Shown: positions 38,912 to 64,000, counted from the first letter of the stretch. The stretch is DNA of 64,000 bases from Candidatus Kaelpia imicola (GCA_030765505.1 JAVCCL010000020.1:28538-92537); one strand, 5' to 3'. Notes: generated from the letters alone by a model not told the origin. A program made the numbers and translations.

Positions 38912-38928
38912 AAAATTTTAAGACTAAA

Positions 38929-43499: not shown

Positions 43500-43501
43500 A
43501 A

Positions 43502-46925: not shown

Positions 46926-46968
46926 TATTCTGTATTATTTGTTTTAAGCGGTAGATTGGAATTTATTT

Positions 46969-48009
46969 ATGAACAGAGAGAGTATTTTTCTATTTGCGGG
47001 AGGTAGCGGCGGGCATGTCCACCCAGCTTTAGTCTTAAAAAAAGATTTAGAGTCCCGGGGTCATAAAGCGATTTTATTTATAAGCAACTTTTCTCATTTC
47101 GAGGCGGAATCGGGAATTAGAAGTTTTAAAATATCTAGACTGAAACTATTGGCTTTGATTCAATCTCTCTATATGTTTAATTATCTCTTGGTATTCTTTA
47201 TTTTAAAGAATACCAGTGTTGCCGTAGGGTTTGGCGGATATTATTCATTGGCGGGAATAGTAGCCGCAAAGATTCTTGGGAAGAAGACTTTTATATATGA
47301 ACCCAACATGGCGCTGGGGCGGTCCAATAGAATATTAGCTTATTTTGTAGATAGGATTTTAGTTTTATGGCCAGAGATATCTTTAAAATCTAAGTTAGGG
47401 TTCAAGATTAGAAGAATCAGGCCTTTAATAAGAAGAGAGAGCAGCTTAGTTGTAAAAGATAAGAGATGGCCATTCTCTATTCTGTTTGCAGGCGGGAGTT
47501 CTGGCTCAATGTTTTTAAACAATCTTTTTACAGAGATTATTCAAGGTGGCTTTTTAAGAGGCCAAGACTTAAGGCTTGTTCTCATAACGGGAGATAAGTT
47601 TTACCGCAAAGTCAAAGAGAGAATTGACGGTTTGAATATTAACAACAATCTTAATGTAGAGGTTTATAGTTTTCGCAATGATATGGAAATTTTTCTTGAT
47701 GATTTTGATTTTCTTATTTCCCGTGCCGGAGCTCAGATTATAGTTGAATCAATCTTCTCTGAGCTTCCGACGCTCTATATTCCTTATCCTTACGCTAAAG
47801 AGCATCAGCTTGAGAATGCGAGAAATATGCTGAGTAAGAGAGGTTCTTTTCTTATCAGGCAGGAACTGGCAGATGTAGAAGTTGTTGCTGGTTTTACGAA
47901 ATATATAGCAAGAGATAGAGAGGGTCTGAATCGGGTAAAAGTTAAATTGAGGCAGCTTAAGGGCAATTTCGAAAAAGCGGACAGGTCTATCGATATTATT
48001 TTAAAATGA
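46969..48009 (+). CDS. murG: Undecaprenyldiphospho-muramoylpentapeptide beta-N-acetylglucosaminyltransferase MurG.
   Basis: GT28 N-terminal glycine loop (FAGGSGGHVHPAL). C-terminal ENARNML-type motif (HQLENARNM). 346 aa. Confidence 0.85.
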   Translation: MNRESIFLFAGGSGGHVHPALVLKKDLESRGHKAILFISNFSHFEAESGIRSFKISRLKLLALIQSLYMFNYLLVFFILKNTSVAVGFGGYYSLAGIVAAKILGKKTFIYEPNMALGRSNRILAYFVDRILVLWPEISLKSKLGFKIRRIRPLIRRESSLVVKDKRWPFSILFAGGSSGSMFLNNLFTEIIQGGFLRGQDLRLVLITGDKFYRKVKERIDGLNINNNLNVEVYSFRNDMEIFLDDFDFLISRAGAQIIVESIFSELPTLYIPYPYAKEHQLENARNMLSKRGSFLIRQELADVEVVAGFTKYIARDREGLNRVKVKLRQLKGNFEKADRSIDIILK

Positions 48010-49364
48010 ACAGGAAGACCTCGTATTATTTAATTGGTATCTGTGGTATAGGTATGAGTTCGCTGGCTCAGCTTATTCAAAGCAGAGGTTTTAAAGTTAG
48101 AGGTTCGGATGCAAGTCCTGATGTTTTAATAGAAAGAAAACTGAGCTCTTTAGGTATTGAAGTATATTTTTCCCATGAAGCTGGAAGAATCAGAGAGAGC
48201 GATATAGTTGTCTATTCGACGGCTGTAGGGAAGAGTAATCCTGAATATATCGAAGCTAAAGGGAAGAACTGCGTTCTACTGCACAGGACATCTGCTCTGG
48301 TTGAAATGCTAAAGGACAGAAAATCCATTGCTGTTACGGGGACTCATGGTAAGACTACAATGACATATCTTCTTGCCTCTGTTCTAAGAAACTATGGTTT
48401 TGACTCGGGAATGATTTTAGGAGGCATATCAAAAGAGATAAACAATAATTTTATTCCCTCTAATTCAAATTATATTTTGGAATTGGATGAGAGTGACAGA
48501 AGTTTTCAGATTTTAGATTCTGATTTAAAGGTATTTACCAGTTTAGGTAATGACCATCTTGAATTTTACAATAATGATTTCTCTGAATTAAAGAGAGAGT
48601 TCAGGTGTTATATGCAAAAAGAAGGAGTTAATATTATATCCGCAGATGATAATTATCTGGTAGAGCTGGCAGAGGCAAGCTCTCTAAAGTATCTTAGTTT
48701 CGGATTTGGACCTAAAGCTGATTATAGGGGTGAATTAGTGGATAAAGGAGATTTTTTCTCAAAGATAAAGCTTTATAAGAACGGTAGTTTTATAACTGAA
48801 TATACTTTGCCCCTTATAGGCTATAAGAATGCATCTAATAGTTTAGCAGTATTTGCTCTTGCTGATATCTTAAAATTAGACCTTTTAAAGATTGCAGAAT
48901 CTTTTTCGGGTCTCTCTGGTATTGAGAGAAGGTATGATCTGAAGTTTTGTTCTAAAGCTGTAACTCTTATGGAAGATTATGCCCATCACCCCAGAGAGAT
49001 AGAGGAAGCGATAAGGACAGTTAAGGAATATTTAAAACCGCCAAGGATTTTGGTCGTTTTTCAGCCTCATAGGTATACAAGAACAGAGATGCTCTGGGAT
49101 GATTATAAAACCTGTTTTAAGGGCGGAGATAAGATCTATATTAGCGATATCTATTCAGCTTTTGAAGAGGTTATCCCCAGCATAAATTCCGAGATGCTGG
49201 TTGAGAATATAGGGTCTTCTAATGTTAAGTATGCTAAGATAGATGAGATTGCAGACTTACTGTTAAATGAAGTTAGGGAGGGTGATATGATCCTTCTCTT
49301 AGGCGCCGGCGATATAAACAAGATTTCAAAGAGATTAAGCGAAGGGTTATCAAGCATTGAATAG
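48006..49364 (+). CDS. murC: UDP-N-acetylmuramate--L-alanine ligase MurC.
   Basis: YLIGICGIGMSSLA N-terminus. Mur ligase P-loop VTGTHGKTTMT. 452 aa. Confidence 0.85.
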   Translation: MNRKTSYYLIGICGIGMSSLAQLIQSRGFKVRGSDASPDVLIERKLSSLGIEVYFSHEAGRIRESDIVVYSTAVGKSNPEYIEAKGKNCVLLHRTSALVEMLKDRKSIAVTGTHGKTTMTYLLASVLRNYGFDSGMILGGISKEINNNFIPSNSNYILELDESDRSFQILDSDLKVFTSLGNDHLEFYNNDFSELKREFRCYMQKEGVNIISADDNYLVELAEASSLKYLSFGFGPKADYRGELVDKGDFFSKIKLYKNGSFITEYTLPLIGYKNASNSLAVFALADILKLDLLKIAESFSGLSGIERRYDLKFCSKAVTLMEDYAHHPREIEEAIRTVKEYLKPPRILVVFQPHRYTRTEMLWDDYKTCFKGGDKIYISDIYSAFEEVIPSINSEMLVENIGSSNVKYAKIDEIADLLLNEVREGDMILLLGAGDINKISKRLSEGLSSIE

Positions 49365-50196
49365 CACTATCTTTGATGGCTACGGGTATTCGTTAAATCC
49401 TCTCTTTTTGCTTGAGATTTCAACGTTAGAGGAACTAAGGGGTACCGTTATTGATTTAAATAGCAAGTATCTAAGATATATGGTCTTTGGGAGATTAAAG
49501 AATATACTCTTCGCTAATCAGCGGAGCGATATTGTTGTTTTGAAGTTAAACGGCAGCATTTTTAAAAAGATTAAAAGAGAGGGAGATATTTTAGATGTTG
49601 GGGCAGGGGTAGAGGTTTCTGAATTGATGAGATTCTCTATAGATAATTCAATTGAAGGATTAGAGTATATGGTCGGCATCCCTTCTACTATAGCTGGGGC
49701 AGCCGTTGGAAATTCGGGGGCTTTTGGAAAAGAGATTTCCGAGAATATAGTTGAGGTTGAATGTCTAAATACTAAAGGAGAGCTGTTGATTTTAAATCGG
49801 GAAAAAATAGATTTTAAATATCGAGATTCCAATCTGGGAAATTTTATTCTGACCAAGGTGTTTTTGAAAATTGCTCTGGGGTCCAGGGCAGAGATAAAGA
49901 AAAATATGAAAGCTTATATAGAGAGGCGGTTCTATACTCAAGATCTAAGAGAGTCTTCCTGCGGTTGTTTTTTTAAAAACCATCTAGAACATAGAGCGGC
50001 TATTTTGATAGACTCTCTGGGTCTTAAGGGTTACAAAAGGGGCGGAGCCGTTGTTTCTGATAAGCACGCCAATTTTTTAATCAGTCTGGATAATAGTTCT
50101 TCTGAAGATATTCTGTCATTAAAAGATGTCTTGCAGAGGAGAGTTTGGAAAGATAAGAAGTTTTGGCTAGAGCCTGAAGTTAAACTAATATGGTAG
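49357..50196 (+). CDS. murB: UDP-N-acetylenolpyruvoylglucosamine reductase MurB.
   Basis: FAD-binding PCMH-type domain motifs (VGIPSTIAGAAVGNSGAFG). 279 aa. Position in the dcw cluster. Confidence 0.8.
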   Translation: MNSTIFDGYGYSLNPLFLLEISTLEELRGTVIDLNSKYLRYMVFGRLKNILFANQRSDIVVLKLNGSIFKKIKREGDILDVGAGVEVSELMRFSIDNSIEGLEYMVGIPSTIAGAAVGNSGAFGKEISENIVEVECLNTKGELLILNREKIDFKYRDSNLGNFILTKVFLKIALGSRAEIKKNMKAYIERRFYTQDLRESSCGCFFKNHLEHRAAILIDSLGLKGYKRGGAVVSDKHANFLISLDNSSSEDILSLKDVLQRRVWKDKKFWLEPEVKLIW

Positions 50197-51152
50197 CAGA
50201 TTTAAAAAAATATAGGATTGGAGTTTTAAGAGGAGGACCCTCTTCGGAGCGGGAGATATCTTTGCTTTCAGGAGAGTCAGTTTTAGAGATTTTGGAAAAG
50301 AGAGGTTTTGAAGTTAGAGATATTATAGTTCCGGAGAGAAAAGATAGGAAATATTTAAAAAGCTGGATTTTAAAAGTTTTAAAAGAAGAGAAGATAGACC
50401 TCTGCTTTATAGCGTTGCATGGATGGTTTGGTGAAGATGGAAATATTCAGAAAATATTGGACGAATCCAATTATCTTTATACAGGCTCTAATAAGCATGC
50501 CTGCAAAATATCTATGGATAAGATAGCCTCGAAAGATGTTTTTGAAAAGAATCTTATACCAACACCCCGCTATTTTATAGTTGATGCTGAGAGTAAAGTA
50601 AATTGGTCATTGCTTAAATTCCCGGCTATCCTGAAACCTTCTTCTCAGGGTTCAAGTATAGGGATTTATAAGATCAAAGATAGCATCGAAGCAGAATATC
50701 TTATACCTGAGGTTCTCAATTACGATGGAAGAGTTTTGGTCGAGGATTTTATAGAAGGAATAGAACTTACCGTTGGAATAGTGGAAGATAAGCCTCTTGC
50801 TGTAATCAAAATATCTTCCTCCAGTGATATTTATAATTATGAAGTTAAATATACTGATGGCTTAAGCAGCTACTCAATTCCGGCTGATATAGATAAAAGA
50901 TTGACTGAGAGAGTTCAAGGATTAGCTCTTAAGGCTCACCGGGCGATAGGATGCAATATGTTTTCTAGAGTAGATATACTATATTCAACGGTTAGAGATG
51001 AGGTTTTTGTTTTGGAGGTCAATACTATTCCCGGACTTACGAAAATTAGCCTTTTACCCAAAGCTGCCAAAGTTTGCGGGATTGAATTTGACGAACTAGT
51101 ATTAAAAATGTTAGAATCTGCCTTCAAGGGAGAGAGATGTTTAAGAAGATAG
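50190..51152 (+). CDS. ddl: D-alanine--D-alanine ligase Ddl.
   Basis: ATP-grasp motifs (IALHGWFGEDG, ILKPSSQGSSIGI, LEVNTIPGLT). 320 aa. Confidence 0.85.
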   Translation: MVADLKKYRIGVLRGGPSSEREISLLSGESVLEILEKRGFEVRDIIVPERKDRKYLKSWILKVLKEEKIDLCFIALHGWFGEDGNIQKILDESNYLYTGSNKHACKISMDKIASKDVFEKNLIPTPRYFIVDAESKVNWSLLKFPAILKPSSQGSSIGIYKIKDSIEAEYLIPEVLNYDGRVLVEDFIEGIELTVGIVEDKPLAVIKISSSSDIYNYEVKYTDGLSSYSIPADIDKRLTERVQGLALKAHRAIGCNMFSRVDILYSTVRDEVFVLEVNTIPGLTKISLLPKAAKVCGIEFDELVLKMLESAFKGERCLRR

Positions 51153-51895
51153 ATTACGAAAAAATAAAAATCGCGTTCTTTTTTCTAAACTGGGCTGTTT
51201 TAATTCTACTTTTGGTTTGGTTCTTCAATATTATGCAAAATTATAAGGTCTCTTCGTCTAGTTTTAGCATAAAAGAGGCCAAGGTTATTTTTAGCGATGG
51301 TTCAGGATTAGATAAGAGTAATGCGTTTAGATATTTAAATATCAAAAAAGGCGACTCTATTTTTAAGATAGACCCAATTGTAAAAATTAAAGAGATTTTC
51401 AAAAAGCATCCCGAGATACTTAAGCTCAGTCTTTATAAGCAGATGCCTAATAAGATTATGGCTATTGTTACAAATAGAATTCCCGTGGCTCAGATTCATT
51501 TAGGGCGCTATTATCCGCTGGATGCAGAAGGCTTTGTGTTGCCATTCCCCAGCAATTTCCGCATTGAGTCTCTACCTCTCGTTAAAGGGGTCAATCCGGG
51601 GGAAGTTGCGGTGGCTAGCGATGCTGACAATGCTAAGATAGACTCAGCTTTAGAGCTGTTGAATTTGATAGAGTCTGTTTTGGGTGAAAGAGGCATCAAT
51701 TTTGATATTGATGTTAATAGTGTCGAAGATATCAATCTTATACTTACTAATGATATTAAGGTCAAGTTGGGTAGAGGCGGCTTCAAGGATAAGCTGATAC
51801 GTTTAAAGGTAGTCTTAATCGATATGGAAGCCAAGAAGTTAAATCCGGCTATCATAGATTTAAGATTCGATAAGGTTGTTTTAATACCACGTTGA
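51137..51895 (+). CDS. ftsQ: Cell division protein FtsQ (POTRA domain).
   Basis: N-terminal TM helix, POTRA-like segment, beta-rich C-terminal domain. 252 aa. Between ddl and ftsA. Confidence 0.6.
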   Translation: MFKKIDYEKIKIAFFFLNWAVLILLLVWFFNIMQNYKVSSSSFSIKEAKVIFSDGSGLDKSNAFRYLNIKKGDSIFKIDPIVKIKEIFKKHPEILKLSLYKQMPNKIMAIVTNRIPVAQIHLGRYYPLDAEGFVLPFPSNFRIESLPLVKGVNPGEVAVASDADNAKIDSALELLNLIESVLGERGINFDIDVNSVEDINLILTNDIKVKLGRGGFKDKLIRLKVVLIDMEAKKLNPAIIDLRFDKVVLIPR

Positions 51896-51923: not shown

Positions 51924-53102
51924 ATGCTCAAGTATGCTCTAGATATTGGCTCTACAAAATTGAGATTTGCTGCTGCAGGTTCGACAGATAGTGAATTGAA
52001 AATTTTGGGATATTTAACATCCAAAGTAGAGGGTTATTCAGGAGGAGTAATAACTGACTATAAGAAGTTGTTTTTTTCTATTTTAAAAATTATAAAAGAG
52101 TTCGAAAAACAATATAATAGTAAACCTAAAAAGATTTTGCTTAACTGTTCTCATCCGGATAGTAAGTTTTATCATTTGCGAGAGGTTTTCCAAAGAGATA
52201 TTTCTGAGCGGCCGATTTCGAATAAAGAGTTAAGGCGTTTAAGGAGCCAAGTCTTGCAGGATAAGATCGGCCTTGAAGAGGAAAAGATATTAATTCAGAT
52301 CGAAGAGTATATTATAGACGGGCAGAGAGGAGTTATAAGCCCAGAGAGGATGGTTGCCAGAAGCATAGAGGTTCTACTCAATGTGATCACTGTCCCAGTT
52401 AATTTTTTTAATAATATTCTTTCTATTTTTTCAGAGATAGGGATAGAGTTGGAAGCTATTATTCCAGAGGCTATAGCCAAGGCTAGTCTCTATTTGGATC
52501 CAGAAGATAAGAAGGCAGGCGTAATGCTTTTGGATATTGGATGGTCTAAAGCTAAGATGGTTCTCTTTGAAGGCAGCGTATTAAAAAATAGCATTGTTTT
52601 TGAAAGTGGTTTTAATGATATTTTCAAAAGATTAAAAGGGATATATCATTTAGATGATCTAGAAGCAGACAAGGTTTTAAATGAAGCTTTGGTTACAGAG
52701 AAAGAGAGTATAATGCTTCAAAGCGAAGAAGGCATAAAAGAGGTCTCTGTTGAAAATGTATGCCAGATTATAGAGAGGGGTTTTAGGAAGAACCTCTATT
52801 TTATTAAAAAGGCTATGGACTCAAAAGATATCTCTCATCTTCTTGCAGGAGGAATATTTATAACAGGAGGTTCTATTTTAAAATATCCAAACTTAAAGGA
52901 GATTGCGGCGGAAATTTTAAAACAACCAGTTATTGTCAAACAGAATAAAATATTTTCTCTGTCACCAGATTATGCAACTGTGATTGGAATGTTGAGTTAT
53001 TCATTTCAAGAGGAGAAAAAGTTTAATGAAAGAGATAAGTGTTGTAGTCTCGTAAAAAAAGGTTTAGGTAAGATTTATCAAATCTTCGATAAGTATTTTT
53101 AG
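51924..53102 (+). CDS. ftsA: Cell division protein FtsA (actin-like ATPase).
   Basis: N-terminal phosphate-1 motif (ALDIGSTKLRFA). Second ASKHA motif (MLLDIGWSKAKMVLF). Glycine-rich adenosine motif (FITGGSIL). 392 aa. Confidence 0.8.
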   Translation: MLKYALDIGSTKLRFAAAGSTDSELKILGYLTSKVEGYSGGVITDYKKLFFSILKIIKEFEKQYNSKPKKILLNCSHPDSKFYHLREVFQRDISERPISNKELRRLRSQVLQDKIGLEEEKILIQIEEYIIDGQRGVISPERMVARSIEVLLNVITVPVNFFNNILSIFSEIGIELEAIIPEAIAKASLYLDPEDKKAGVMLLDIGWSKAKMVLFEGSVLKNSIVFESGFNDIFKRLKGIYHLDDLEADKVLNEALVTEKESIMLQSEEGIKEVSVENVCQIIERGFRKNLYFIKKAMDSKDISHLLAGGIFITGGSILKYPNLKEIAAEILKQPVIVKQNKIFSLSPDYATVIGMLSYSFQEEKKFNERDKCCSLVKKGLGKIYQIFDKYF

Positions 53103-53105
53103 TCT

Positions 53106-54215
53106 GTGAAAATACTTCAAATAATTACTCACCTGGAGATAGGCGGTGCTCAAAAAGCAACTCTTCTTTTATCTCAAGAACTTATAAATAGAGGCCACGA
53201 GGTTGTTGTTTTATCTTCTGCCCAAGGCGGATTATTAAAAGAGTTTAAAGAAAAATTAGGTCCAAATTTTAGAAGTTTATGTTTTTTAAAAAGAGGTATA
53301 AATCCTATTTTTGACCTTTTAGCTTTTTTCTCAGTTTTCATCTATGTAAAAGAACTCAGTTTTGATCTGATCCATACGCACTCTTCTAAAGCCGGCATTT
53401 TAGGGCGCTGGGCTGCTCTCTTCTCATCTGTCAATTCTGTCCATACTGTCCATGGTTTTGCTTTTCATGATTATCAAAATTTTATTTTGAGATACTGTTT
53501 TATTTTGATTGAAAGAGTTACAGCTTTTATATCGGGTAAGATCATATTTGTATCCGAAGAGGTTAAAAAAAAGGCGTTTAAGAATTTTATAGTAACTACC
53601 GAAGAGAAAACAGAGGTTATCTATGAGCTTGTCAAGATTGATCCGCCTGAGCATAGAATAAAAAATAAAGATTTTTTTACAATAGGTATGGTTGCCCCGT
53701 TGAAAGAGCAGAAGAGGCCCGAGGATTTTCTGAAATTTGCGGTATCTTTAAGCAGAATACGCAAAGATGTAAGGTTTGTTTTAGTGGGGGATGGTAAATT
53801 GAGGCCAAAGCTGGAGATAGACGCGAAGAGATCTGGCATTCTATGTAAAGTTGAATTTAAGGGTTGGAGAGATGATGCTTATACCATAATGCAATCTTTT
53901 GATATCTTTGTGCTTACCAGCATCTTCGAGGGTCAACCGCACGTAATAATAGAAGCAATGTCGTTATCAATTCCGGTAATTGCTACTGCGGTTGATGGAG
54001 TAAGGGATTTGGTTTCTCAAGGTGAGAATGGATTTTTAGTCGAGCCTTGTAAGCCCCATGATATAGTATGCTTGGCTAATAGGCTATTAGATGATAAAGT
54101 ATTGAGAGAGTCTATTGGATCTAAAGGACGTAGCTATTTTGAGACTGAGAAAAGGTTTAACTACATTGAAAACATTAGTAAAATCGAAAAGCTGTATGAG
54201 TCTACAATGAAATGA
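53106..54215 (+). CDS. GT4-family (GT-B fold) glycosyltransferase.
   Basis: GTG start 3 nt after the ftsA stop. MKILQIITHLEIGGAQK N-terminus. C-terminal EGQPHVIIEAMSLSIPVIAT (E-X7-E motif region). 369 aa. Confidence 0.8.
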   Translation: MKILQIITHLEIGGAQKATLLLSQELINRGHEVVVLSSAQGGLLKEFKEKLGPNFRSLCFLKRGINPIFDLLAFFSVFIYVKELSFDLIHTHSSKAGILGRWAALFSSVNSVHTVHGFAFHDYQNFILRYCFILIERVTAFISGKIIFVSEEVKKKAFKNFIVTTEEKTEVIYELVKIDPPEHRIKNKDFFTIGMVAPLKEQKRPEDFLKFAVSLSRIRKDVRFVLVGDGKLRPKLEIDAKRSGILCKVEFKGWRDDAYTIMQSFDIFVLTSIFEGQPHVIIEAMSLSIPVIATAVDGVRDLVSQGENGFLVEPCKPHDIVCLANRLLDDKVLRESIGSKGRSYFETEKRFNYIENISKIEKLYESTMK

Positions 54216-55168
54216 ACAGAGTAGAAGTTTTCAACATAATGCTCATCTGTTTCGCGTTCTCTTTTTTCCTTTCTAAGTTTTTCTATAAAAAGAAAATCAA
54301 AGTAGGCAAAAAAGAGCAATCTACGCACGGTGGAGTTATAATTTTAGCGACAGTTTTTTTGGGAATATTAATATCTCCTTTAAGAGATACGTATTATGTC
54401 TGGAAGCTGTTCCTGCCTTTCTTTTTAATGTTTCTTTTAGGTTTTATCGATGATTATAAGCATCTCTCTCCTTATCCAAAGCTGATTGCCGAAATATTTA
54501 TAATACTTCTCGCGCTCTTTATGGGTTTTAAGACTGAAATCATGTACTTTCCTAGTTATCTTAATTATCTCGTCTCTTTGGTTTGGATTTTGATTTTAAG
54601 CAATGAATTTAATTTTTTAGATATAATGGATGGCCTCTCTTTGGGCAGCATCATAGCCGTGGCTTTGACGTTTACAATAATCGGTTTGATAAACTTTCAA
54701 CCTTTCAATCTTCTTTTTGCGGCAGTTGTTCTGGCCTCCTGCCTGGGTTTCTTTCCTTACAATTACCGTAAAGCATCTGCTTATCTTGGAGATAGCGGCA
54801 GTCTATCGCTGGGCTTGCTTATGGCTATTTTAGCTATATCGTTTAGTTATACGAGAGAAAATAGACCTATGGTCCTATTGACCCCTGTTATTATATTCGG
54901 GCTTCCTATTTTTGATTTTTTATATCTTACGATAAGAAGGGTCTGGCAACGGAAGTCTATTTTGAGAAAAAGTCCTGACCATCTTGCAATACTTATGCAT
55001 ATTAATGGAGCCTCTAGGAAAAGAGTAATATATAAGTTCTGGCTTATATCAGCAGGTTTTGCTTCTACAGCACTATTGCTTCAGTTCGGTTCGAGACTTT
55101 TAGGTGTTGTTGCATTGATTATCTCTATATTCCTTTTCTTTGAAGTTGCTTTACGATGCTATAAATGA
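54212..55168 (+). CDS. Polyprenyl-phosphate N-acetylhexosamine-1-phosphate transferase (MraY/WecA/WbpL PNPT family), a second PNPT paralog inside the dcw cluster.
   Basis: Multi-TM protein with a DD motif (GFIDDYK), NFLDIMDGL and LGDSGSLSLG. Short form of 318 aa. Overlaps the GT4 stop by 4 nt. Confidence 0.75.
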   Translation: MNRVEVFNIMLICFAFSFFLSKFFYKKKIKVGKKEQSTHGGVIILATVFLGILISPLRDTYYVWKLFLPFFLMFLLGFIDDYKHLSPYPKLIAEIFIILLALFMGFKTEIMYFPSYLNYLVSLVWILILSNEFNFLDIMDGLSLGSIIAVALTFTIIGLINFQPFNLLFAAVVLASCLGFFPYNYRKASAYLGDSGSLSLGLLMAILAISFSYTRENRPMVLLTPVIIFGLPIFDFLYLTIRRVWQRKSILRKSPDHLAILMHINGASRKRVIYKFWLISAGFASTALLLQFGSRLLGVVALIISIFLFFEVALRCYK

Positions 55169-56490
55169 AAAAGAGTGTAAATAATTTAATCCTTGGTTCA
55201 GGTATAACAGGGTTGAGCTGCGGCCTACATTTAGGAAATTTAAGTAATAAAAAAGGTGGATTTTCATCAGACTATTTAATCCTTGAAAAAGAGAAGGGTG
55301 TTGGAGGTTTAGCCCGATCTATCAAAAAGAAAGGTTTTGTATTTGACTATAGTGCTCATCTCCTGCATTGCAGGGATCCCTATTTTTCAAAATGGGTGGA
55401 GAATAATCTTAAAAAAAGTCTCAAGTTTCATAAAAGAAATGCCTGGGTCTACTCGCATGGGGTATTTACCAAATATCCTTTTCAGGCAAATCTCTATGGT
55501 TTGCCTAGAGATGTAATAAAGGATTGTCTTTTGGGCCTTTTGAGTTTGAATGGTTTTAGTGATAGTAAGCCCAATAATTTTGAAGAGTGGTGTTATAACA
55601 AATTCGGCAGCGGAATTTCTAAACACTTTATGCTTCCCTACAATGAAAAGTTTTGGAATATAGCAGCTAAAAAAATTACGCTAGAATGGATAGATGGTTT
55701 TATACCTCAGCCGCAGCTTAGGGATATGGTTAAAGGGGGATTTGAATATTCCCATAAAGAGTTTGGCTACCATAGCAAATTTTACTATCCTATTAATGAA
55801 GGGATAGAGCTTATAGTTAAGAAAATCAGTTCAAAATGCAGCAATATAGTACTCAAAGAAAAAGCAGAAAAGATAAACTTAAAAGAGAGATGGGTTTTAA
55901 CCTCTAGAGGCAGAAAGATTTATTACAATAATTTAGTCTCTACTCTTCCTATGGTGGATTTAAACGACATGATTATCGGAATCGATAGCAATATCAGTAA
56001 TCTTTTTCGCAAGTTAAAGTATATCTCTGTTATTAATGTAAATATGGGCATAAAACGGCCGAATATATCCGATAAAGACTGGGTCTATTTTCCGGAAGAC
56101 AACTTCTCTTTTTATCGTATTGGGTTTCCGATGAACTTTGCTCCTTCTTCTACACCTAGCGGTTTTAGCTCAATATATATAGATATCTCTTATTCAGGTT
56201 CTTTGGCTATCAACAAGAGAAAAGAGAGTATTATTGAACGGGTAAAAGCTGATTTGATCAAACTGGGTATTATTGGTGAAGAAGAGAGCATCCCGGTCGT
56301 GGACTATAATGATATTAAGTATGCTTATATACTCTATGATAAAAATTGGTCTCATGCTCGAGGTGGAATTATTGATTATCTTTTAAAAAATTCCGTATAT
56401 TCTGCTGGGAGATTTGGTTCCTGGAGCTATCTCTCTATGGAGGGGTGTTTTTTAGAGGGCAGGAGAATAGCCAATATATTAAAGAGATGA
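55165..56490 (+). CDS. FAD-dependent oxidoreductase, UDP-galactopyranose mutase / amine-oxidase-like.
   Basis: N-terminal dinucleotide-binding loop (ILGSGITGLSCGLHL...EKEKGVGGLARS). 441 aa. Overlaps the previous stop by 4 nt. Confidence 0.55.
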   Translation: MKKSVNNLILGSGITGLSCGLHLGNLSNKKGGFSSDYLILEKEKGVGGLARSIKKKGFVFDYSAHLLHCRDPYFSKWVENNLKKSLKFHKRNAWVYSHGVFTKYPFQANLYGLPRDVIKDCLLGLLSLNGFSDSKPNNFEEWCYNKFGSGISKHFMLPYNEKFWNIAAKKITLEWIDGFIPQPQLRDMVKGGFEYSHKEFGYHSKFYYPINEGIELIVKKISSKCSNIVLKEKAEKINLKERWVLTSRGRKIYYNNLVSTLPMVDLNDMIIGIDSNISNLFRKLKYISVINVNMGIKRPNISDKDWVYFPEDNFSFYRIGFPMNFAPSSTPSGFSSIYIDISYSGSLAINKRKESIIERVKADLIKLGIIGEEESIPVVDYNDIKYAYILYDKNWSHARGGIIDYLLKNSVYSAGRFGSWSYLSMEGCFLEGRRIANILKR

Positions 56491-56511
56491 AACATTTGAC
56501 AGCTTTTTATT

Positions 56512-57570
56512 ATGATCTTTGACGACCTATGTCTCTACCTAAGGCTCTATCCTGAAATTTTAAATCTTAGATTTGCGAGAGAGATGATATACTATCTCTT
56601 AAAAGGTGTTAGCAGGCATCCAATATCAATTAATTTTCTAATAACTTCTAAATGTAATTTTAAGTGCAAGATCTGTAGTTATTACGGTAATTCAGGGACT
56701 CATTTTTCAGAGCTGAGCTTTCAGGAATTTGTAGATTTCTTAGATCAGGTTCAAGCTTTTAAACCCTTGATTTTTTTAGGCGGCGGAGAGCCTTTTATAA
56801 GAGAAGATATATATTCCATGTTGGAGGAGATAGAGAAGAGAGAGCTTAAAGTGATAGTGTCGACAAATGGTTATTTGTTAGATTTAGATAGAATATCTTC
56901 TTTAAACTTAGATTCGCTCATCCTCTCTCTATATGGACCTGAGTCGATTCATGATAGTATTACTGGAGTTCCTGGTTCTTATTCTGTAGTTGTTAAAAAA
57001 ATAAAAAAGATAACAGCTGATAATATGGTTAAAAATTTAGTTGTATCTACAATCCTATTGCCTTCAAATTTCAAACATCTCTCTGAGTTCAGTGATTCTG
57101 TTTTTGCTTTAGGAGTTGATTCAATTAAAATTGAAAACCTTAATTATCTAACAGAAGAAGAGTTTGGGAGTTCTACTGAAGAGATGGCCGACCTTATTTT
57201 AAAACCCCATACTCTTGTTTTAGACAAGCATTGCTTCAGCAGAACCGATTTAGAGTATGCTTGGAACAGCATCAATGTTTTAAGAAGAAGATATAAAGGT
57301 AGATTATTTTTGAAGCCAGCTCTAAACAAGAGAGATTTTTTAAAATGGTATTGCGAGGGCAAAACTTTTAAGGGTTGTCATTTTATAAGACATTCTATCT
57401 TTGTCTCATCTTCCGGAGATATTATACCTTGTCAGTTTTTAAGTAAAACTAAGCTTGGAAAAATAGACAAAAATGTTGTAAAATACATATGGAACTCGAA
57501 GAGATATAATGATTTTAGAGAGTTTGTGCAAAGGACTGGCTTAGAAGTTTGTAAACGTTGTTGTAAATAA
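56512..57570 (+). CDS. Radical SAM enzyme with a C-terminal SPASM/twitch-like cysteine cluster.
   Basis: CX3CX2C motif (SKCNFKCKICSY). SAM-binding glycine motif (IFLGGGEPF). C-terminal cysteines (C...CQF...CKRCCK). 352 aa. Confidence 0.75.
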   Translation: MIFDDLCLYLRLYPEILNLRFAREMIYYLLKGVSRHPISINFLITSKCNFKCKICSYYGNSGTHFSELSFQEFVDFLDQVQAFKPLIFLGGGEPFIREDIYSMLEEIEKRELKVIVSTNGYLLDLDRISSLNLDSLILSLYGPESIHDSITGVPGSYSVVVKKIKKITADNMVKNLVVSTILLPSNFKHLSEFSDSVFALGVDSIKIENLNYLTEEEFGSSTEEMADLILKPHTLVLDKHCFSRTDLEYAWNSINVLRRRYKGRLFLKPALNKRDFLKWYCEGKTFKGCHFIRHSIFVSSSGDIIPCQFLSKTKLGKIDKNVVKYIWNSKRYNDFREFVQRTGLEVCKRCCK

Positions 57571-57583
57571 AAGGTTTTAAGTT

Positions 57584-58120
57584 ATGGATTTTGAACAAAA
57601 ATGGAAGAGGGCTGTAAAGAATACTGAAATAGAGAAAGGCTGGGTGGGCTATCTAAATACCAATTCGAGCACAACGCTCTCTTATATAATGCTCTCTGAA
57701 TCGATGCTTGATAATTCAGATACTGTTATCAGAAAAGGCAAGGTCGAAGTAACGCGACCCTTAATATACTTACCGGATAACAACCCTGTATTTGAAGGTT
57801 TTGAATTATCGAGTCAGAATCTATTTAATAGTTCTGTTTTGACTTTTCTTCTGTTGAGAGGAGTAAGTTTTCCTTCTTTAAAATACCAGAATAGTGTTTA
57901 CTCTCTGGATATTGACAATCTCTCTTTGACTGAGGCGGTTAAAAAGCATAAAAGAGAGCTTCAAAGATTGGAGGATGTTAAGACCGGTCTCATAGTAGGG
58001 TCTGATGACTGCTGGCATTACTCTCTTGCTATCTATGTTGCAGCTCTGACCTCTAAATCTGCCTCTAATGACATAGAGAGGTATCTTAAAGATTTAAAGA
58101 GTAGGTTTGAAGATAGGTAG
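57584..58120 (+). CDS. Hypothetical protein (178 aa) with no recognisable domain.
   Basis: ORF immediately downstream of the radical SAM gene (13-nt gap). No signal peptide or TM helix is apparent. Confidence 0.45.
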   Translation: MDFEQKWKRAVKNTEIEKGWVGYLNTNSSTTLSYIMLSESMLDNSDTVIRKGKVEVTRPLIYLPDNNPVFEGFELSSQNLFNSSVLTFLLLRGVSFPSLKYQNSVYSLDIDNLSLTEAVKKHKRELQRLEDVKTGLIVGSDDCWHYSLAIYVAALTSKSASNDIERYLKDLKSRFEDR

Positions 58121-58171: not shown

Positions 58172-59116
58172 ATGGAAGAGAGAGAAGTTTTTGCAAAAGT
58201 TAACAGTTTAATAGAGAACATCGAAAAAGTTATACTGGGAAAGCACGATGCCGTTCAACTGGCAGTAGCTGTATTTCTATCCGAGGGTCATCTATTGATG
58301 GAGGATGTTCCCGGAGTAGGTAAAACTGTACTTGCTAAGTCTATGGCTAAATCATTTTCGGCAAGCTTTAGGAGAATACAATTTACACCCGACCTTCTTC
58401 CTTCAGATGTTACGGGCAGCTATATATTTAACCAGAAAAATTCCGAATTTGAATTTAGGTCCGGTCCGGTCTTTGCTAATATAGTTATAGCTGATGAGAT
58501 TAACCGCGGTACTCCTAGGACGCAGAGCGCTCTTCTGGAGCCTATGGAGGAGTATCAGGTTACTGCGGATGGTAATACTTTTCAACTTGATAGGCCATTT
58601 TTCTTGATAGCTACTCAGAATCCCGTTGAGAGGGAAGGCACCTATTTTCTTCCTATCTCACAGCTGGACAGATTTCTGGTCAAGATGGGTATGGGGTATC
58701 CCGAAAAAGCTGAAGAGATTCAGATTCTTTTAGACAGAGAGAGAGAGGATCCTCTAAATAAAATTGAGGCTGTAATTACCAAAGAAGAAATTCTTGAGAT
58801 TCAAAAATTTGTAAAAGCTATTAAGGTGGATGCTAAGATATACGAATATGTTATCAGCATAACACAGACGACTCGTGAGACTGATAAACTTATTCTGGGA
58901 GCGAGCCCCAGGGCATCTCTTGATCTATTTAGGTTATCTCAGGCTCTGGCACTAATGGAGGAGAGAACATATTGTATTCCTGACGATGTTAAGAAAGCTG
59001 CTCCACTGGTTCTTGCTCATAGGGTTATACCGTCTTCACCTGCAAAGACAGAGATTGGTAATACTCAGGAGATAATTAAAAAACTAGTAAATGAAATCTC
59101 CGTTCCTATCCAATAA
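58172..59116 (+). CDS. MoxR-family AAA+ ATPase.
   Basis: Walker A motif (GVGKTVLAKSMAKSF). Walker B motif (VIADEINR). MoxR-type C-terminal helical domain. RBS AAAGGAGG upstream. 314 aa. Confidence 0.9.
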   Translation: MEEREVFAKVNSLIENIEKVILGKHDAVQLAVAVFLSEGHLLMEDVPGVGKTVLAKSMAKSFSASFRRIQFTPDLLPSDVTGSYIFNQKNSEFEFRSGPVFANIVIADEINRGTPRTQSALLEPMEEYQVTADGNTFQLDRPFFLIATQNPVEREGTYFLPISQLDRFLVKMGMGYPEKAEEIQILLDREREDPLNKIEAVITKEEILEIQKFVKAIKVDAKIYEYVISITQTTRETDKLILGASPRASLDLFRLSQALALMEERTYCIPDDVKKAAPLVLAHRVIPSSPAKTEIGNTQEIIKKLVNEISVPIQ

Positions 59117-60386
59117 TAAGGGTTGCTGTGTTTTAACAGAGTTTGGCTTATATGCTCTGATTGTAGCGGTATTTTTAACTTCTCTTGGTTTTATACTGCA
59201 GTCCAATCTTATCTATCTTGTAGCATCAGGACTCTGGGGGCTTGTTTTGACTGACTTTTTATTTTCTTTTCTCTCCTTGAGAGGAATAAGGGTTACAAGA
59301 TTTGCTCCGACTCATGCAGTTAGAGGTGAGGATTTTAAAATAAGAATAAGATTAGAGAATAGAGGGTTCTCTAAGTACTTAATAAGATTGACTGATAGTA
59401 GTTTTACTGAAAATATATCCGGGGTAGAGCTTCCTATTGTACGTAGTTTAAAAAACAGTGAGATTTTAGAGCTGGATTATATTATGAAAATTAAAGCAAG
59501 GGGTGTTCATAATCTTGAGTCTGTTCAGGCAGAGAGCAGTTTTCCTCTTGGTCTTTGGAGGAGGGTTATAAATTTTCCCTCCAGATCCAAAATTACCATA
59601 TACCCTGAATTTTACGAGGTGCCTCAATTTGCGGTATCTTATAGGGGTATGAGATCGGAGTTTGCAAATACATCTTCTAATAGGCCTGGTATGGGCGGTA
59701 ACTTTTTGCAGATACGAGAGTATCAATACGGGGATAGTTTAAAGAATATTCATTGGAGAGCAACGGCTAGAACAGGAAAGCTTATGGTCAAAGAGCTAGA
59801 GAAATTTACTCTTTCAAACCTTTCTATAGTATTAGATAGTTCCTCTAATATGGTTTTAGGATTGCTTGAAGAGTCCAATTTTGAATATGCAGTTAAAACA
59901 GCTGCAACTATAGCCAACAAAGCTTTGAGTACTCGCTATCATGTAAAGCTTATATACTACAATCAGATTAAAAAGAAGATCGAGTTTAAGAAGGCTTACG
60001 GCCGAATGACTCCAATATTAGACAGCCTTTCTAAGATAGGTACGACGGAGAGGATAAATGTCAAAGATCTCGTAGATGCTTCTATACCTGAGATTGAGAA
60101 GGAGTCTGTTGCGGTTTTTGTCTTACTCTCCCTTAACTCTGATGTTACTCAAAAAATCATACAACTTGCAAATCAGGGTATTGATTCTGTGCTTGTCGTA
60201 TTTGATCCCAGGTCTTTTGCCGCTGTTCTGGATAAGAAGATTGGGAATTTTTATAATGTCTTCTCCCAACTTATGAGCGGAGAAGCGTTCTATTTAACTG
60301 GTGAAGGTATAAGGGTGTATATGGTAAAACATGGCGATCGTATACCTGATGCGTTAAGTAGACCGCATATGTTTTTATCTTCTTAA
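59091..60386 (+). CDS. DUF58-family protein (vWA-like), the usual partner of MoxR ATPases.
   Basis: Two N-terminal TM helices. DUF58 signature (FLQIREYQYGDSLKNIHWRATARTGKLMVKELE). 431 aa. Confidence 0.85.
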   Translation: MKSPFLSNNKGCCVLTEFGLYALIVAVFLTSLGFILQSNLIYLVASGLWGLVLTDFLFSFLSLRGIRVTRFAPTHAVRGEDFKIRIRLENRGFSKYLIRLTDSSFTENISGVELPIVRSLKNSEILELDYIMKIKARGVHNLESVQAESSFPLGLWRRVINFPSRSKITIYPEFYEVPQFAVSYRGMRSEFANTSSNRPGMGGNFLQIREYQYGDSLKNIHWRATARTGKLMVKELEKFTLSNLSIVLDSSSNMVLGLLEESNFEYAVKTAATIANKALSTRYHVKLIYYNQIKKKIEFKKAYGRMTPILDSLSKIGTTERINVKDLVDASIPEIEKESVAVFVLLSLNSDVTQKIIQLANQGIDSVLVVFDPRSFAAVLDKKIGNFYNVFSQLMSGEAFYLTGEGIRVYMVKHGDRIPDALSRPHMFLSS

Positions 60387-60387
60387 A

Positions 60388-63300
60388 ATGTTTTATATTA
60401 TTTCATTTTTACTGGTAAGCATTGGCATAACAGCTCTTCCGCTTATTGAAGGAGTGGGCTCCAGCCTGATTCTTGCAGGTTCTATTTTTACTTTTGGTTT
60501 CGTGTTGACGCAGCTGATTAAAAAATTCCACTTTTCAAAAAATGTTGCCAGAGCGTTACTCTTTATTGCCTTAATTATTGGGGTTGGAGCATTCTTTACT
60601 TCAGGTAATTCCGGAGAGTGGGCAATTGTATGGCTGATATGGTATCTTATCCTCTCTTTTCAGGTTATAAGCATCTTTAGCTCTAAAGATGTTAAGGGTT
60701 GGTTTAGCTCTTATCTTTTGAGTTTTATTCAGCTTTCTCTGGGCGGCATTTTTACAGAGAAGCTACTTTTCTTGGTCATCTTCTCTCTTTACCTGGCTTT
60801 ATCAGTATTCGGTTTCATTTTTTTGCTTCCTAAAATAGAGATACGGGACAAAATTTTAAAATTGATAAAACCCCGCTTAGATTTAGCAAAATGGGGTGCC
60901 TTAACAACCGTCAATGTCTTTTTTATAACAGGGTTAGTTTTTCTCATCTTGCCGAGGACTCAAAGCCCACTCTTTGCAGTTAAAAAAGAGATACATCTTG
61001 TTGAGAAGTTAAAAAAAGAAGTTGATTTTACAGAGGAGATGACAGAAGAAGAAGCTGTGAGCCTACCTGAGGAGATTGAGCTGGGAACTATATCCGAATT
61101 AAAAAATGAAAATAAGATGTTGATGTTGATAGAGACGGAGAGACCGTTTCTTTTTAGAGCCCAGGCTTTCAATTATTACGATGGCAGCAGTTGGATTAAA
61201 TACGGCAGTAAGTCCGTAACCATCAAAGTAAAAGATAATAAGATTAATTTTAAACCGCTCTATCTGAGAAAAGAACTCTTTGTTAAAACGACACCTGACA
61301 AGTTTTACCATCAAAAGTTTTATATTAAGAACTATTCTCAAAATCTTATTCTAAGCTCTTACCCTATTATAGGTCTATCTGGTTCAGATGTAGAAAAGAT
61401 TAAGATAGACCATTTTGAAAATATTTATTTACAGAGAAAACTTAAGTTTGGAGATGAATATGAGGTAATCTCTGTTGATAAGAGCTATCCTTCTAATTAT
61501 CTGAGGTCGCTGCCGAGGAAGTACCCCAGAGAGATTATGGATCTATACCTTCAGCTTCCGCCCAATATAGATAAAAGATTGATGGATTTGACTTCTAAGA
61601 TTTTAAAATATACACCCACCAATATTTACGATGAATTGATAACTCTTAGGAAATATTTGAAAGAGCATTGTATCTATAGTCGGTTAAATACCGGCAAAAG
61701 CCCGACGCTGTATGAATTCCTCTTTGATAAAAAGCCTGGTGATTGCGAGTATTTTGCAACAGCTTTGGCTTTAATGCTGCGTTATCGTAATATTCCTACG
61801 CGTTTTGTCATAGGGTTCTCAGGGGGGGAGTTTGATTCTCAGAAGAGAACCTCTATTATTTATGCAAAGAATGCTCATGCTTGGATAGAGGTTTTCTTCC
61901 CTACTATAGGATGGTTGCCCTGCGATGCAACCCCTAAGGCTCTTCTTCAAGAGCAGTGGGAAGAAGCCCCTAAGATGTTAGCCTTAAAACCTCAAGATTA
62001 TCCAGAGGATAGAGGATTTGCTGGCGAAAGCGGCAGCGGTGAGACGGCTGATTCAAAGCAGAGCTTAGAGAGGCAGGAGATTGCCGGGGAGGGTATTCCC
62101 GAGGAAGAGCTCTTGCCGCAGGATTATTATTTCAAAGATAGGTTATCTCAACATGGTTTTACTAAAGAGGAGATTGTTTTTTCAGAAGAATTTTTTGAAG
62201 AGGCGGCTACTCCTGCTGAATTAGCTGCCGAAGAAGAGGATCTATCCGGTCAAGGTTATACTGGAGATAAAGAGATAGCTACATTTGAAGAAGAGAGAGC
62301 CGAAGGCCTTTTAAGAGAGGATGAAGTAACCGAGGAGATTTTTACAGAAGAGGAGGCAGAGGAGTGGTTCTATAGAGAAGAAGGAGCGTTTAAAGAAGAG
62401 GAAGTAGAAGCAGAGACTGAATCAATAAGTGAGGATGATGTTTTTGAAGAAGTCGCTTTTTCAGAAGAAAGGGTAGAGACTGCTGTTAAAATAGAAAAGG
62501 AGCCGGCTGAAGGTGAGACTCTTGAAGAAGATTTAGCATCTTTTTATCAAGATAGTGAGGATTTAGGATTTACCGAAATAGCATCCGGGCTTGAACAGGA
62601 AGAAAAAGTTGTTGAAGAAGAAGTTTTGGAAGAAAAAAAATTAGCATCTCTGCCTAAAGAGCTTGAAGAAGGTTCAGTAAGAGTCGATTTAGAAGATGAA
62701 TTTAAAAAAGAAGATTTTGGCAAAGAGGAGGATCCTGCTGACTCTTCTTCTATTACGGAAGCTTCTTTAGAAGAAGGGATATCTGAACAAGAGTATCTTT
62801 CTGAAGAACTGTTATCTTCTGGTGATGTTGAGGTAGCGGAAAAAGACGTGCTCTCTGATGAAGGATTGACAATGGAAGACAGTGTTCCTTTGGAGCAAGA
62901 AGTGCTTCTGGATCAAGAGATTCAAGACCAAGAGATTGCTTCAGATCTATATCTGGATTCTTCTGTGTCGCCTGGAATTCCTATAACGGCTATGGACGAG
63001 GAAGAAGAGGGAGAGATTACAGAATTAATAGATGAAGAAGATGATATTATCCCTGATTTAGATATTGTCGAAGAGGAGGTTGCTTTAGAAGAGGATGTAA
63101 TATTAGAAGAACTGCCCGCTGAAGATCTGGTATCAGAAGAAGAATCATTAGAAGAGAGTGAAGAAGTTGCTTTTGAAGAAGATACAACATTGGAAGAGGA
63201 GATGGTTCAAGAGGATGATGTTTTTGAAGAAGTTTTAGAAGAGAGTGCGGAGACTATTATTAAAGAGGATGTGGTTGAGGGAGAGGTATCTGAAGAAGAG

Positions 63301-64000
63301 GATGTTTTGGGTGAAGTTGAGGTTGATAGCGAGAAAGAAGATTTAAAAATTGTTGAAGATATTGTACTAGAAGAGATAGGGGAGGCGGAAGAGTTTTTAA
63401 TTGAGGATATAGATGTTGCCCAAGAATTTACTCAAGCCGAAGAAATAATAGAAAATGATCTTCCTGAAAGAGAGATAGCTGCTTTAGATATCGGTACTGA
63501 AGTTAAAGAAGAAAAGCTCTTTGATGATATTCCCGAGATAGTTGAAGAGGAGTCTGTTCCAGAGGTATTATTGCCTGAAGATATTGAAGATAAGTTAGAA
63601 GATTCTCTGGGTAAGAATATTCTTTTTAAAGATGATTTTGAATTGATTGTTGAAGAAGATCTATCAAGGATTGAGGATGTTGCAGGAGAAGAGTTTGAGG
63701 CTGAAGATGTTTCAGTTGAAGATATGATCCCAGAAGAGGATTCAATTTCAGGTGAATTAGGCTTCTTGTTTAACATTTTAAAAGATAAGCTCAAAGAGTG
63801 GATTTTTGGATTCTCTTACTATACTCAAGCTCTAATAGTAGATTTTATTAAAGGTATATTTGTAGGTATTAAGAGTTTCATTTACGGAATAGGTGCTATC
63901 ATTTATAGTCATCTTAAAAATAATAAGACACCGTATTCTTTATCTATTGTTACATTCTTTGTGGCGTTTTTACTCTGGGCGCTGTTTAAAGAATTAATCA
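60388..64000 (+). CDS. Transglutaminase-like (TgpA-type) polytopic membrane protein with a very long acidic low-complexity insertion. 3' truncated by the window edge.
   Basis: ATG at 60388, one nucleotide after the DUF58 stop. Seven N-terminal TM helices (DUF3488-like). Transglutaminase Cys-His-Asp core (GDCEYFATALALMLRY...AHAWIEVFFPTIGWLPCDATP). Then a glutamate-rich stretch of roughly 590 aa and at least two C-terminal TM helices. The ORF is still open at 64000. Confidence 0.8.
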   Translation, partial: MFYIISFLLVSIGITALPLIEGVGSSLILAGSIFTFGFVLTQLIKKFHFSKNVARALLFIALIIGVGAFFTSGNSGEWAIVWLIWYLILSFQVISIFSSKDVKGWFSSYLLSFIQLSLGGIFTEKLLFLVIFSLYLALSVFGFIFLLPKIEIRDKILKLIKPRLDLAKWGALTTVNVFFITGLVFLILPRTQSPLFAVKKEIHLVEKLKKEVDFTEEMTEEEAVSLPEEIELGTISELKNENKMLMLIETERPFLFRAQAFNYYDGSSWIKYGSKSVTIKVKDNKINFKPLYLRKELFVKTTPDKFYHQKFYIKNYSQNLILSSYPIIGLSGSDVEKIKIDHFENIYLQRKLKFGDEYEVISVDKSYPSNYLRSLPRKYPREIMDLYLQLPPNIDKRLMDLTSKILKYTPTNIYDELITLRKYLKEHCIYSRLNTGKSPTLYEFLFDKKPGDCEYFATALALMLRYRNIPTRFVIGFSGGEFDSQKRTSIIYAKNAHAWIEVFFPTIGWLPCDATPKALLQEQWEEAPKMLALKPQDYPEDRGFAGESGSGETADSKQSLERQEIAGEGIPEEELLPQDYYFKDRLSQHGFTKEEIVFSEEFFEEAATPAELAAEEEDLSGQGYTGDKEIATFEEERAEGLLREDEVTEEIFTEEEAEEWFYREEGAFKEEEVEAETESISEDDVFEEVAFSEERVETAVKIEKEPAEGETLEEDLASFYQDSEDLGFTEIASGLEQEEKVVEEEVLEEKKLASLPKELEEGSVRVDLEDEFKKEDFGKEEDPADSSSITEASLEEGISEQEYLSEELLSSGDVEVAEKDVLSDEGLTMEDSVPLEQEVLLDQEIQDQEIASDLYLDSSVSPGIPITAMDEEEEGEITELIDEEDDIIPDLDIVEEEVALEEDVILEELPAEDLVSEEESLEESEEVAFEEDTTLEEEMVQEDDVFEEVLEESAETIIKEDVVEGEVSEEEDVLGEVEVDSEKEDLKIVEDIVLEEIGEAEEFLIEDIDVAQEFTQAEEIIENDLPEREIAALDIGTEVKEEKLFDDIPEIVEEESVPEVLLPEDIEDKLEDSLGKNILFKDDFELIVEEDLSRIEDVAGEEFEAEDVSVEDMIPEEDSISGELGFLFNILKDKLKEWIFGFSYYTQALIVDFIKGIFVGIKSFIYGIGAIIYSHLKNNKTPYSLSIVTFFVAFLLWALFKELI
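62000..63760 (+). repeat. GAA/GAG-rich coding low-complexity region (poly-acidic, glutamate-rich) with internal imperfect repeats.
   Basis: Hundreds of Glu/Asp codons. The exact 23-mer gaggatgatgtttttgaagaagt occurs twice (62431-62453 and 63211-63233), each encoding EDDVFEEV. Confidence 0.7.

Follow-up and report, generated by a model that had tools for sequence, protein, structure and literature searches.

When ftsZ is not found behind ftsA at the end of a division and cell wall (dcw) gene cluster, what stands in its place, and does it have anything to do with division? The question is raised by a stretch of 64,000 nucleotides from Candidatus Kaelpia imicola (GCA_030765505.1 JAVCCL010000020.1:28538-92537; hereafter the window), in which the dcw cluster passes from ftsA directly into genes for a glycosyltransferase, a sugar-1-phosphate transferase and a putative sugar mutase. 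The host belongs to the Omnitrophota, in the Planctomycetes-Verrucomicrobia-Chlamydiae (PVC) group, and the genus was described from an Antarctic lake (PMC8542988). An earlier note on this DNA had offered two branches, ftsZ elsewhere or a lineage without a cluster-encoded FtsZ, and had suggested that the lineage had drawn a lipid-linked glycan module into its division operon. The explanation that we find reasonably probable is a dcw 3′ end without ftsZ, next to which a separate cassette that would start an envelope glycan has become a lineage-specific neighbour. The Kaelpia data are those of the window, and the related loci searched total about 0.25 Mb.

The dcw cluster and the absence of ftsZ

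The order mraZ-rsmH-ftsL-ftsI-murE-murF-mraY-murD-ftsW-murG-murC-murB-ddl-ftsQ-ftsA, already read from the sequence in the earlier note, is borne out by Pfam searches with the window proteins and by the Pfam tables of orthologues with 82-87% identity, and is the canonical dcw order. The genes from mraZ to ddl occupy positions 37162-51152 on the + strand, with gaps of -32 to +43 nt. Among them mraZ, rsmH, ftsI, mraY and ftsW were identified by Pfam on the window proteins, and the Mur ligases, murG, murB and ddl were named from the orthologue tables combined with tblastn; the ftsL-like gene (38561-38911), with no Pfam match, owes its name to position only. The mraY gene (43502-44587) encodes a true MraY (TIGR00445, 363 bits against a cutoff of 192). 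The cluster continues with ftsQ (51137-51895, +; PF03799 FtsQ_DivIB_C, 37.5 bits against a cutoff of 21) and closes its set of division genes with an ftsA-like gene (51924-53102, +).

In a canonical cluster ftsZ would come next. Here a gene for a GT4-family glycosyltransferase begins 3 nt past the ftsA stop. That no open reading frame (ORF) of the window carries the GGGTGxG signature was confirmed by a six-frame regular-expression search, which found no motif of this type. Likewise, tblastn with FtsZ of E. coli and B. subtilis (a test only as reliable as these query sequences, which may not be exact) gave no match in the window at E ≤ 10, and Pfam detected no Tubulin or FtsZ_C domain in essentially all + strand ORFs of at least 100 aa of the window. 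At E ≤ 1e-4, tblastn found no FtsZ in the related loci L001-L018 either.

Twelve further distinct dcw ends could be compared (L001/L002, counted once, L003, L004, L005, L006, L007, L008, L009, L010, L011, L012 and L018), and ftsZ never follows ftsA in them within the 0.5-10 kb downstream. The same trio of GT4, polyprenyl-phosphate sugar-1-phosphate transferase (PNPT) and mutase genes lies downstream of ftsA in seven of the twelve (L001/L002, L003, L004, L005, L007, L008 and L018). In L009, ftsA is followed by proC, a gene for a PNP_UDP_1-family phosphorylase and ileS. A metagenome contig (L006:562-4228; GCA_900218215.1) carries ftsQ, a canonical-looking ftsA and then a B12-binding radical SAM gene, not ftsZ. 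In L010 and L012, ftsA is followed by genes for a conserved, uncharacterised 640-652-aa protein and for a protein with an HD domain; L011 matches these two loci in its FtsQ and FtsA-like pair, and its contig stops about 0.5 kb beyond ftsA. The 640-652-aa protein is soluble, its two copies are 27% identical and it has no Pfam or PDB match; it is a candidate for a lineage-specific FtsA partner. Four of these loci (L007, L008, L009 and L011) come from metagenome-assembled genomes (MAGs) that serve as GTDB representatives and whose records are titled "uncultured Planctomycetia bacterium"; they are probably mislabelled Omnitrophota bins. The Ddl proteins of their dcw regions are 44-79% identical to that of Kaelpia, and L007 and L008 are syntenic with it.

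The published record on FtsZ in the Omnitrophota is conflicting: reviews credit the phylum with the protein and one survey does not. In the survey (Pende et al. 2021, PMC8178401), a figure legend gives FtsZ as absent from Planctomycetes, Omnitrophica and Chlamydiae, and the supplementary table lists four of five Omnitrophica genomes without FtsZ, three of which keep FtsA. The sole FtsZ-bearing genome of the five, OLB16, has two FtsZ proteins, one of them adjoining FtsA (PMC8178401). Among the PVC reviews that list Omnitrophota as FtsZ-bearing, one of 2016 relies on the OLB16 genome alone. According to a PVC study of 2025, the phylum has conserved dcw genes, and Seymour 2023, Williams 2021, Santana-Molina 2023, Leonard 2022 and a 2026 complete-genome preprint make no statement on FtsZ in Omnitrophota. 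Recently, 176 complete Omnitrophota genomes have been reported (bioRxiv 10.64898/2026.06.07.730766).

These records bear on both branches. If ftsZ were located elsewhere in the Kaelpia genome, with the cluster split after ftsA as in several phyla, division would be conventional. Such an arrangement would agree with the OLB16 genome and with the reviews, and also with the retention of an FtsA that keeps its predicted membrane helix, this protein being best known for anchoring FtsZ; moreover, the 64 kb searched here belong to a MAG that is reported to be 92% complete. It agrees less well with the four FtsZ-less genomes of the survey and with the 12 of 12 dcw ends that have no ftsZ downstream of ftsA, and the divergence of FtsA described below fits the loss of a constraint imposed by FtsZ. 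We regard it as unlikely. From the window, the related loci and the survey, FtsZ is probably absent from the Kaelpia genome as a whole, and the missing gene would most probably be explained by a loss of FtsZ from most of the phylum, in which FtsA, FtsQ, FtsW/FtsI and full peptidoglycan synthesis have been retained. The alternative posed by the earlier note was therefore rightly framed, and we favour its FtsZ-less branch because of the four survey genomes and the twelve dcw ends. For the phylum this branch is already in the literature, hence not new; for the Kaelpia genome it is probable.

A divergent FtsA is retained

The ftsA-like gene encodes a protein with the actin-like fold and SHS2 (1C) insertion of FtsA, since SHS2_FTSA (PF02491) scores 31.4 bits, above its cutoff of 25.4. 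The Pfam FtsA model stays below gathering, and TIGR01174 aligns with the product from end to end (E 6.8e-36) at 124.1 bits, below the equivalog cutoff of 175.85. The top PDB matches are the FtsA structures 7q6f and 1e4f, over residues 5-362. At the C-terminus an amphipathic membrane-targeting helix is predicted, with a hydrophobic moment of 0.67 over VKKGLGKIYQIFDK, and it ends in KYF. Eleven FtsA-like proteins were compared, 10 from loci of the Omnitrophota type, and every one has an xYF terminus. An AF2 model built from a 9-sequence alignment reached a pLDDT of 40, too low for use.

FtsA proteins of different Omnitrophota lineages are unusually divergent, sharing about 10-30% identity, and the majority fall under the FtsA equivalog cutoff; the FtsA of L009 is canonical, at 238.8 bits on TIGR01174. 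Judged by these alignments, the gene at the cluster end is a fast-evolving yet recognisable ftsA, and the combination of variability with a retained xYF helix would fit a lineage that has no FtsZ partner and still uses membrane-bound FtsA. Another Omnitrophota lineage (L010:11803-16236, L012:11795-16196 and L011:9179-10330) has an extremely divergent FtsA-like protein of 383-384 aa, which is about 13% identical to that of Kaelpia and scores 47 bits on TIGR01174.

With the canonical ftsQ-ftsA-ftsZ end, as in E. coli and Verrucomicrobium spinosum, the Kaelpia cluster shares an identical order up to ftsA, and it differs in having no ftsZ and an FtsA below the equivalog cutoff. With the FtsZ-less PVC groups (Chlamydiota and Planctomycetota, joined by Omnitrophica according to PMC8178401) it shares a dcw-type cluster, peptidoglycan genes, FtsQ, FtsW and FtsI, and the lack of ftsZ, which for the whole Kaelpia genome we infer. 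The unsolved problem of how a walled bacterium divides when FtsZ is missing has been addressed mainly in Chlamydiota and Planctomycetota. These two groups lost ftsA along with ftsZ, whereas Kaelpia keeps an FtsA with a predicted membrane helix and an intact order from mraZ to ftsA. Omnitrophota seem to lack FtsZ and yet to retain a complete peptidoglycan pathway together with FtsA, FtsQ and FtsW/FtsI, and if this is true they offer a natural test of what FtsA does alone. The main value of the locus is as a pointer to division with FtsA and no FtsZ and to the conflict in the literature, the glycan cassette being secondary.

Three conserved genes downstream of ftsA

The first gene of the trio (53106-54215, +) encodes a GT4-family glycosyltransferase (Glycos_transf_1, 106.7 bits; Glyco_transf_4, 72.5 bits). 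Its GTG at 53106 is the sole start codon within the first 30 codons, and the orthologues begin at the same place. The product reached no NCBIfam equivalog cutoff and is a generic GT4.

The second gene (54212-55168, +) encodes a PNPT of the WecA/MraY superfamily (PF00953, 100.2 bits against a cutoff of 27). An identity as an alternative MraY was rejected on the TIGR00445 scores, 60.7 bits for this protein against the cutoff of 192 and the 363 bits of the true MraY. It also remains under the WecA cutoff (TIGR02380, 35.4 against 326 bits, the WecA model being narrow). Its top PDB matches are MraY, and for the L016 and L017 orthologues WecA is the best-scoring model (100 and 80 bits). From these scores we take the protein to be a MraY paralogue and not MraY itself. 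One could imagine an alternative route of the lipid I/lipid II type, in which such a MraY-like transferase and the GT4 enzyme would make a modified peptidoglycan precursor, and the dcw neighbourhood, the PDB matches and the slightly higher score on MraY than on WecA would all suit this idea. Such a route would have to coexist with the true MraY and MurG encoded upstream, however, and its transferase is far under the MraY cutoff and WecA-like in the L016 and L017 orthologues; the partner glycosyltransferase is a GT4 and not a GT28, and lipid II is made without any sugar mutase. We consider this route extremely unlikely.

The third gene (55165-56490, +), left unnamed in the earlier note, is the most informative of the three. 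Its product is a homologue of the eukaryote-type flavoenzyme UDP-galactopyranose mutase (UGM), as indicated by phmmer searches against the PDB and by the Pfam domains NAD_binding_8 and Amino_oxidase. The A. fumigatus and T. cruzi enzymes (3uka, 3ute and 4dsg) match it with E-values of 1.4e-39 to 2.5e-37, and the T. cruzi enzyme 4dsg spans residues 8-432, nearly the whole protein. The N-terminus is a FAD-binding Rossmann fold (NAD_binding_8, 42 bits). The His of the His loop, the Arg of FYR and the Arg and Tyr of GRFGSWxY, which we take to have the active-site roles of their counterparts in A. fumigatus UGM, are aligned and kept, and H65, R318, R416 and Y422 are invariant across five members of the clade. 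The protein is thus predicted, by homology, to supply a furanose sugar nucleotide.

At E ≤ 1e-10 the mutase protein has 834 homologues; among the named ones nearly all come from Omnitrophota and three belong to Elusimicrobia/Endomicrobiia. Fusions to a GT2 domain, roughly 700 aa long, also occur. A metagenome scan with the mutase alignment returned two loci only, one of which was already among the known loci. Databases mostly label eukaryote-type UGM proteins of this set (P0067, P0070, P0074, P0084, P0089, P0095 and P0099) as protoporphyrinogen oxidase or FAD-dependent oxidoreductase.

Orthologues of the GT4 gene follow ftsA in L001-L005, L007, L008 and L018. In this Kaelpia/Saelkia clade, ftsA, GT4, PNPT and mutase genes are adjacent at FtsA identities between 82% and about 30%, and the gap between ftsA and GT4 is 3-6 nt in seven of eight distinct loci, window included, the eighth being L003 with 235 nt. 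The adjacency of ftsA and the trio persists in L005 and L018 despite inversion or replacement just downstream, where an inverted TgpA-like gene follows the trio and the two genes that come next in the window, a radical SAM gene and a 178-aa orphan, are missing. The conserved core downstream of ftsA is therefore made of three genes, not of five as one unit.

The trio is also found away from ftsA, in L016 and L017, with proteins 35-46% identical to those of the window; only L017 is labelled Omnitrophica. In L016 it lies beside genes for an ABC2_membrane protein and an ABC_tran protein with Wzt_C (export genes of the Wzm/Wzt type), and a 1996-aa multi-glycosyltransferase protein adjoins it. The trio of L017 stands beside ABC2_membrane and ABC_tran genes without Wzt_C. 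B12-radical SAM/SPASM proteins are encoded in both trio loci. In L017 (2355-11302), MoxR and DUF58 genes and a gene for a 996-aa protein lie between GT4 and the PNPT-mutase pair. In the window, MoxR, DUF58 and TgpA-like genes likewise come after the module. The glycan cassette and MoxR/DUF58/TgpA may thus have been neighbours for a long time, irrespective of ftsA.

Spacing and linkage to the division genes

The junctions on which the operon argument had been built are confirmed by the ORF map: ftsA stops at 53102 and the GTG of the GT4 gene follows at 53106 (+3 nt), the next two genes overlap their predecessors by 4 nt (54212/54215, ATGA, and 55165/55168), and the gaps before the radical SAM gene and the 178-aa ORF are +21 and +13 nt. 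The distances stand, yet their use as an argument for a recruited operon does not. For 26 unrelated housekeeping genes of the + strand at 168-30125, the median gap is 5 nt, and gaps of 30 nt or less account for 21 of 25, with overlap in 10 cases. Since tight spacing is the norm across the window, it is a weak argument for recruitment, and the 235-nt gap in L003 points in the same direction. A consensus scan for promoters was at background, with 30 promoter-like sites against 33 expected, and in the corresponding scan for terminators all sites lay inside genes, with no intergenic one found. Read-through from the dcw transcript into the trio is plausible, as the spacing is compatible with it and no intergenic terminator-like site was seen.

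The persistence of the ftsA-trio adjacency is a better argument for linkage than spacing, and it is on this ground that functional recruitment has to be weighed. In that case the cassette would make a septal or wall-linked glycopolymer, or balance the undecaprenyl-phosphate pool, within an FtsA-organised divisome that is independent of FtsZ. Synteny in relatives goes part of the way: the trio follows ftsA in the seven further ends, over the whole range of FtsA identity given above and across the rearrangements of L005 and L018, and glycan and peptidoglycan pathways use one lipid carrier, which is established biochemistry of the PNPT family. Elsewhere in the Omnitrophota, however, unrelated genes follow the dcw cluster, the trio of L016 and L017 sits in ordinary loci of the Wzm/Wzt type, the radical SAM and orphan genes are inconstant, and compact spacing is found throughout the window. 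The recruitment proposed in the earlier note is thus weakly supported, and we consider it decidedly unlikely. The fullest version of this proposal, that the Kaelpia/Saelkia clade divides without FtsZ, with FtsA organising FtsQ/FtsW/FtsI and a co-transcribed furanose-glycan cassette making a wall or septum glycopolymer for division, is in our judgement very unlikely. The glycan cassette is probably a lineage-specific neighbour of ftsA and not a replacement for FtsZ.

A putative starter of a surface glycan

As a neighbouring cassette with a role of its own, the trio can be given a tentative pathway, whose substrates we infer from the enzyme families. The WecA/MraY-superfamily transferase would load a sugar-1-phosphate onto undecaprenyl phosphate, the GT4 enzyme would attach a second sugar and the UGM homologue would provide a furanose donor such as UDP-galactofuranose (UDP-Galf). 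Most likely the trio would prime an ABC-transporter-dependent surface polysaccharide or an O-antigen-like chain, because in L016 and L017 it adjoins exporter genes of the Wzm/Wzt type and large polymerising glycosyltransferases. In the Kaelpia/Saelkia clade, where it lies directly after ftsA, it would probably be read through from the dcw transcript.

Two known systems resemble this scheme in part. Klebsiella pneumoniae O1/O2 D-galactan I is made by WecA priming, the GT4 enzyme WbbO, Glf and the Wzm/Wzt exporter. A PNPT initiator, a GT4 and a UDP-galactopyranose mutase are common to both, as are the exporter genes flanking the trio in L016 and L017. The Kaelpia mutase, however, is of the eukaryote type and not a short bacterial Glf (1i8t matches with an E-value of only 1e-7), and exporter and polymerising glycosyltransferase were not found in the Kaelpia window. 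The linker and galactan of mycobacterial arabinogalactan are made by WecA, WbbL, Glf and GlfT1/2, as a lipid-linked Galf polymer that is later attached to peptidoglycan. A WecA-type start and a Galf-containing lipid-linked polymer would be the common features, and they would rationalise a linkage to wall-synthesis genes. On the other hand, the GlfT-type GT2, the LCP-type ligase and the arabinan genes were not seen in the Kaelpia window, and Omnitrophota are lipopolysaccharide (LPS) diderms.

Apart from the OLB16 genome, the reviews and the limited share of a 92% complete MAG that was searched, three further points count against our explanation. The mutase homologue has FMLPYN where A. fumigatus UGM has FMRPYN; this Leu stands at the position of Arg182, which we take to be the flap arginine that binds the UDP pyrophosphate, so the substrate may not be UDP-Gal. 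Pfam detected no Wzm/Wzt, flippase, polymerase or Galf-transferase in the 64-kb window, and the pathway is therefore incomplete as seen. Lastly, an adjacency that survives a downstream inversion could mean a real functional link between ftsA and the trio, which we may have under-weighted. Whatever its product, the cassette documents a family of eukaryote-type UGM that is widespread in Omnitrophota and, in one clade, the linkage of the dcw cluster with genes that would prime an envelope glycan.

Genes beyond the trio

The gene after the trio (56512-57570, +) encodes a radical SAM enzyme (PF04055, 62.5 bits) with a SPASM domain (PF13186, 45.1 bits). The CxxxCxxC motif is conserved (Cys48/52/55). 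The SPASM domain is partial, because just five auxiliary C-terminal Cys are conserved, against the seven of the full motif, and the protein ends directly in CxxCC. No NCBIfam subfamily was reached, the best score being 88 bits against a cutoff of 380. The 178-aa orphan protein (57584-58120, +) has labelled homologues from Omnitrophota only, and in distant lineages the genes before it are not radical SAM genes. Both genes are lineage-variable neighbours and not constant members of a module.

A MoxR-type AAA+ ATPase (58172-59116, +; AAA_3, 202 bits, with AAA_lid_2) comes next, followed by a DUF58 protein (59091-60386, +; PF01882, 52 bits), DUF58 being the usual partner of MoxR. After the orphan in L021, the 500 nt of available sequence contain no MoxR gene; in L019 and L020 the sequence downstream of the orphan is cut off. 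The last gene, for a TgpA-like transglutaminase membrane protein, starts with an ATG at 60388, one nt beyond the DUF58 stop, and runs off the window (60388-64000, +; open frame 60358-63999); its orthologues carry TgpA_N and Transglut_core. The protein has a Glu/Asp-rich acidic low-complexity stretch of more than 600 residues (about 61900-63700), and then a C-terminal hydrophobic segment.

Genomic setting

The FtsA-like protein, the mutase homologue and the 178-aa orphan each match a protein of a Ca. Kaelpia imicola MAG with 100% identity. The window also encodes BamA, Skp and LpxA/B/C/D/I, and the host is therefore an LPS diderm. Strand bias is extreme, with nearly all genes of the window (1-64000) on the + strand, and GC skew is positive in all 2-kb bins. 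The region at 168-30125, with the median intergenic gap of 5 nt given above, is about 98% coding. Two fused genes were noted, one for LpxC-FabZ (4974-6290, 438 aa) and one that joins a TatD-type hydrolase to a radical SAM domain (17907-19280, 457 aa).

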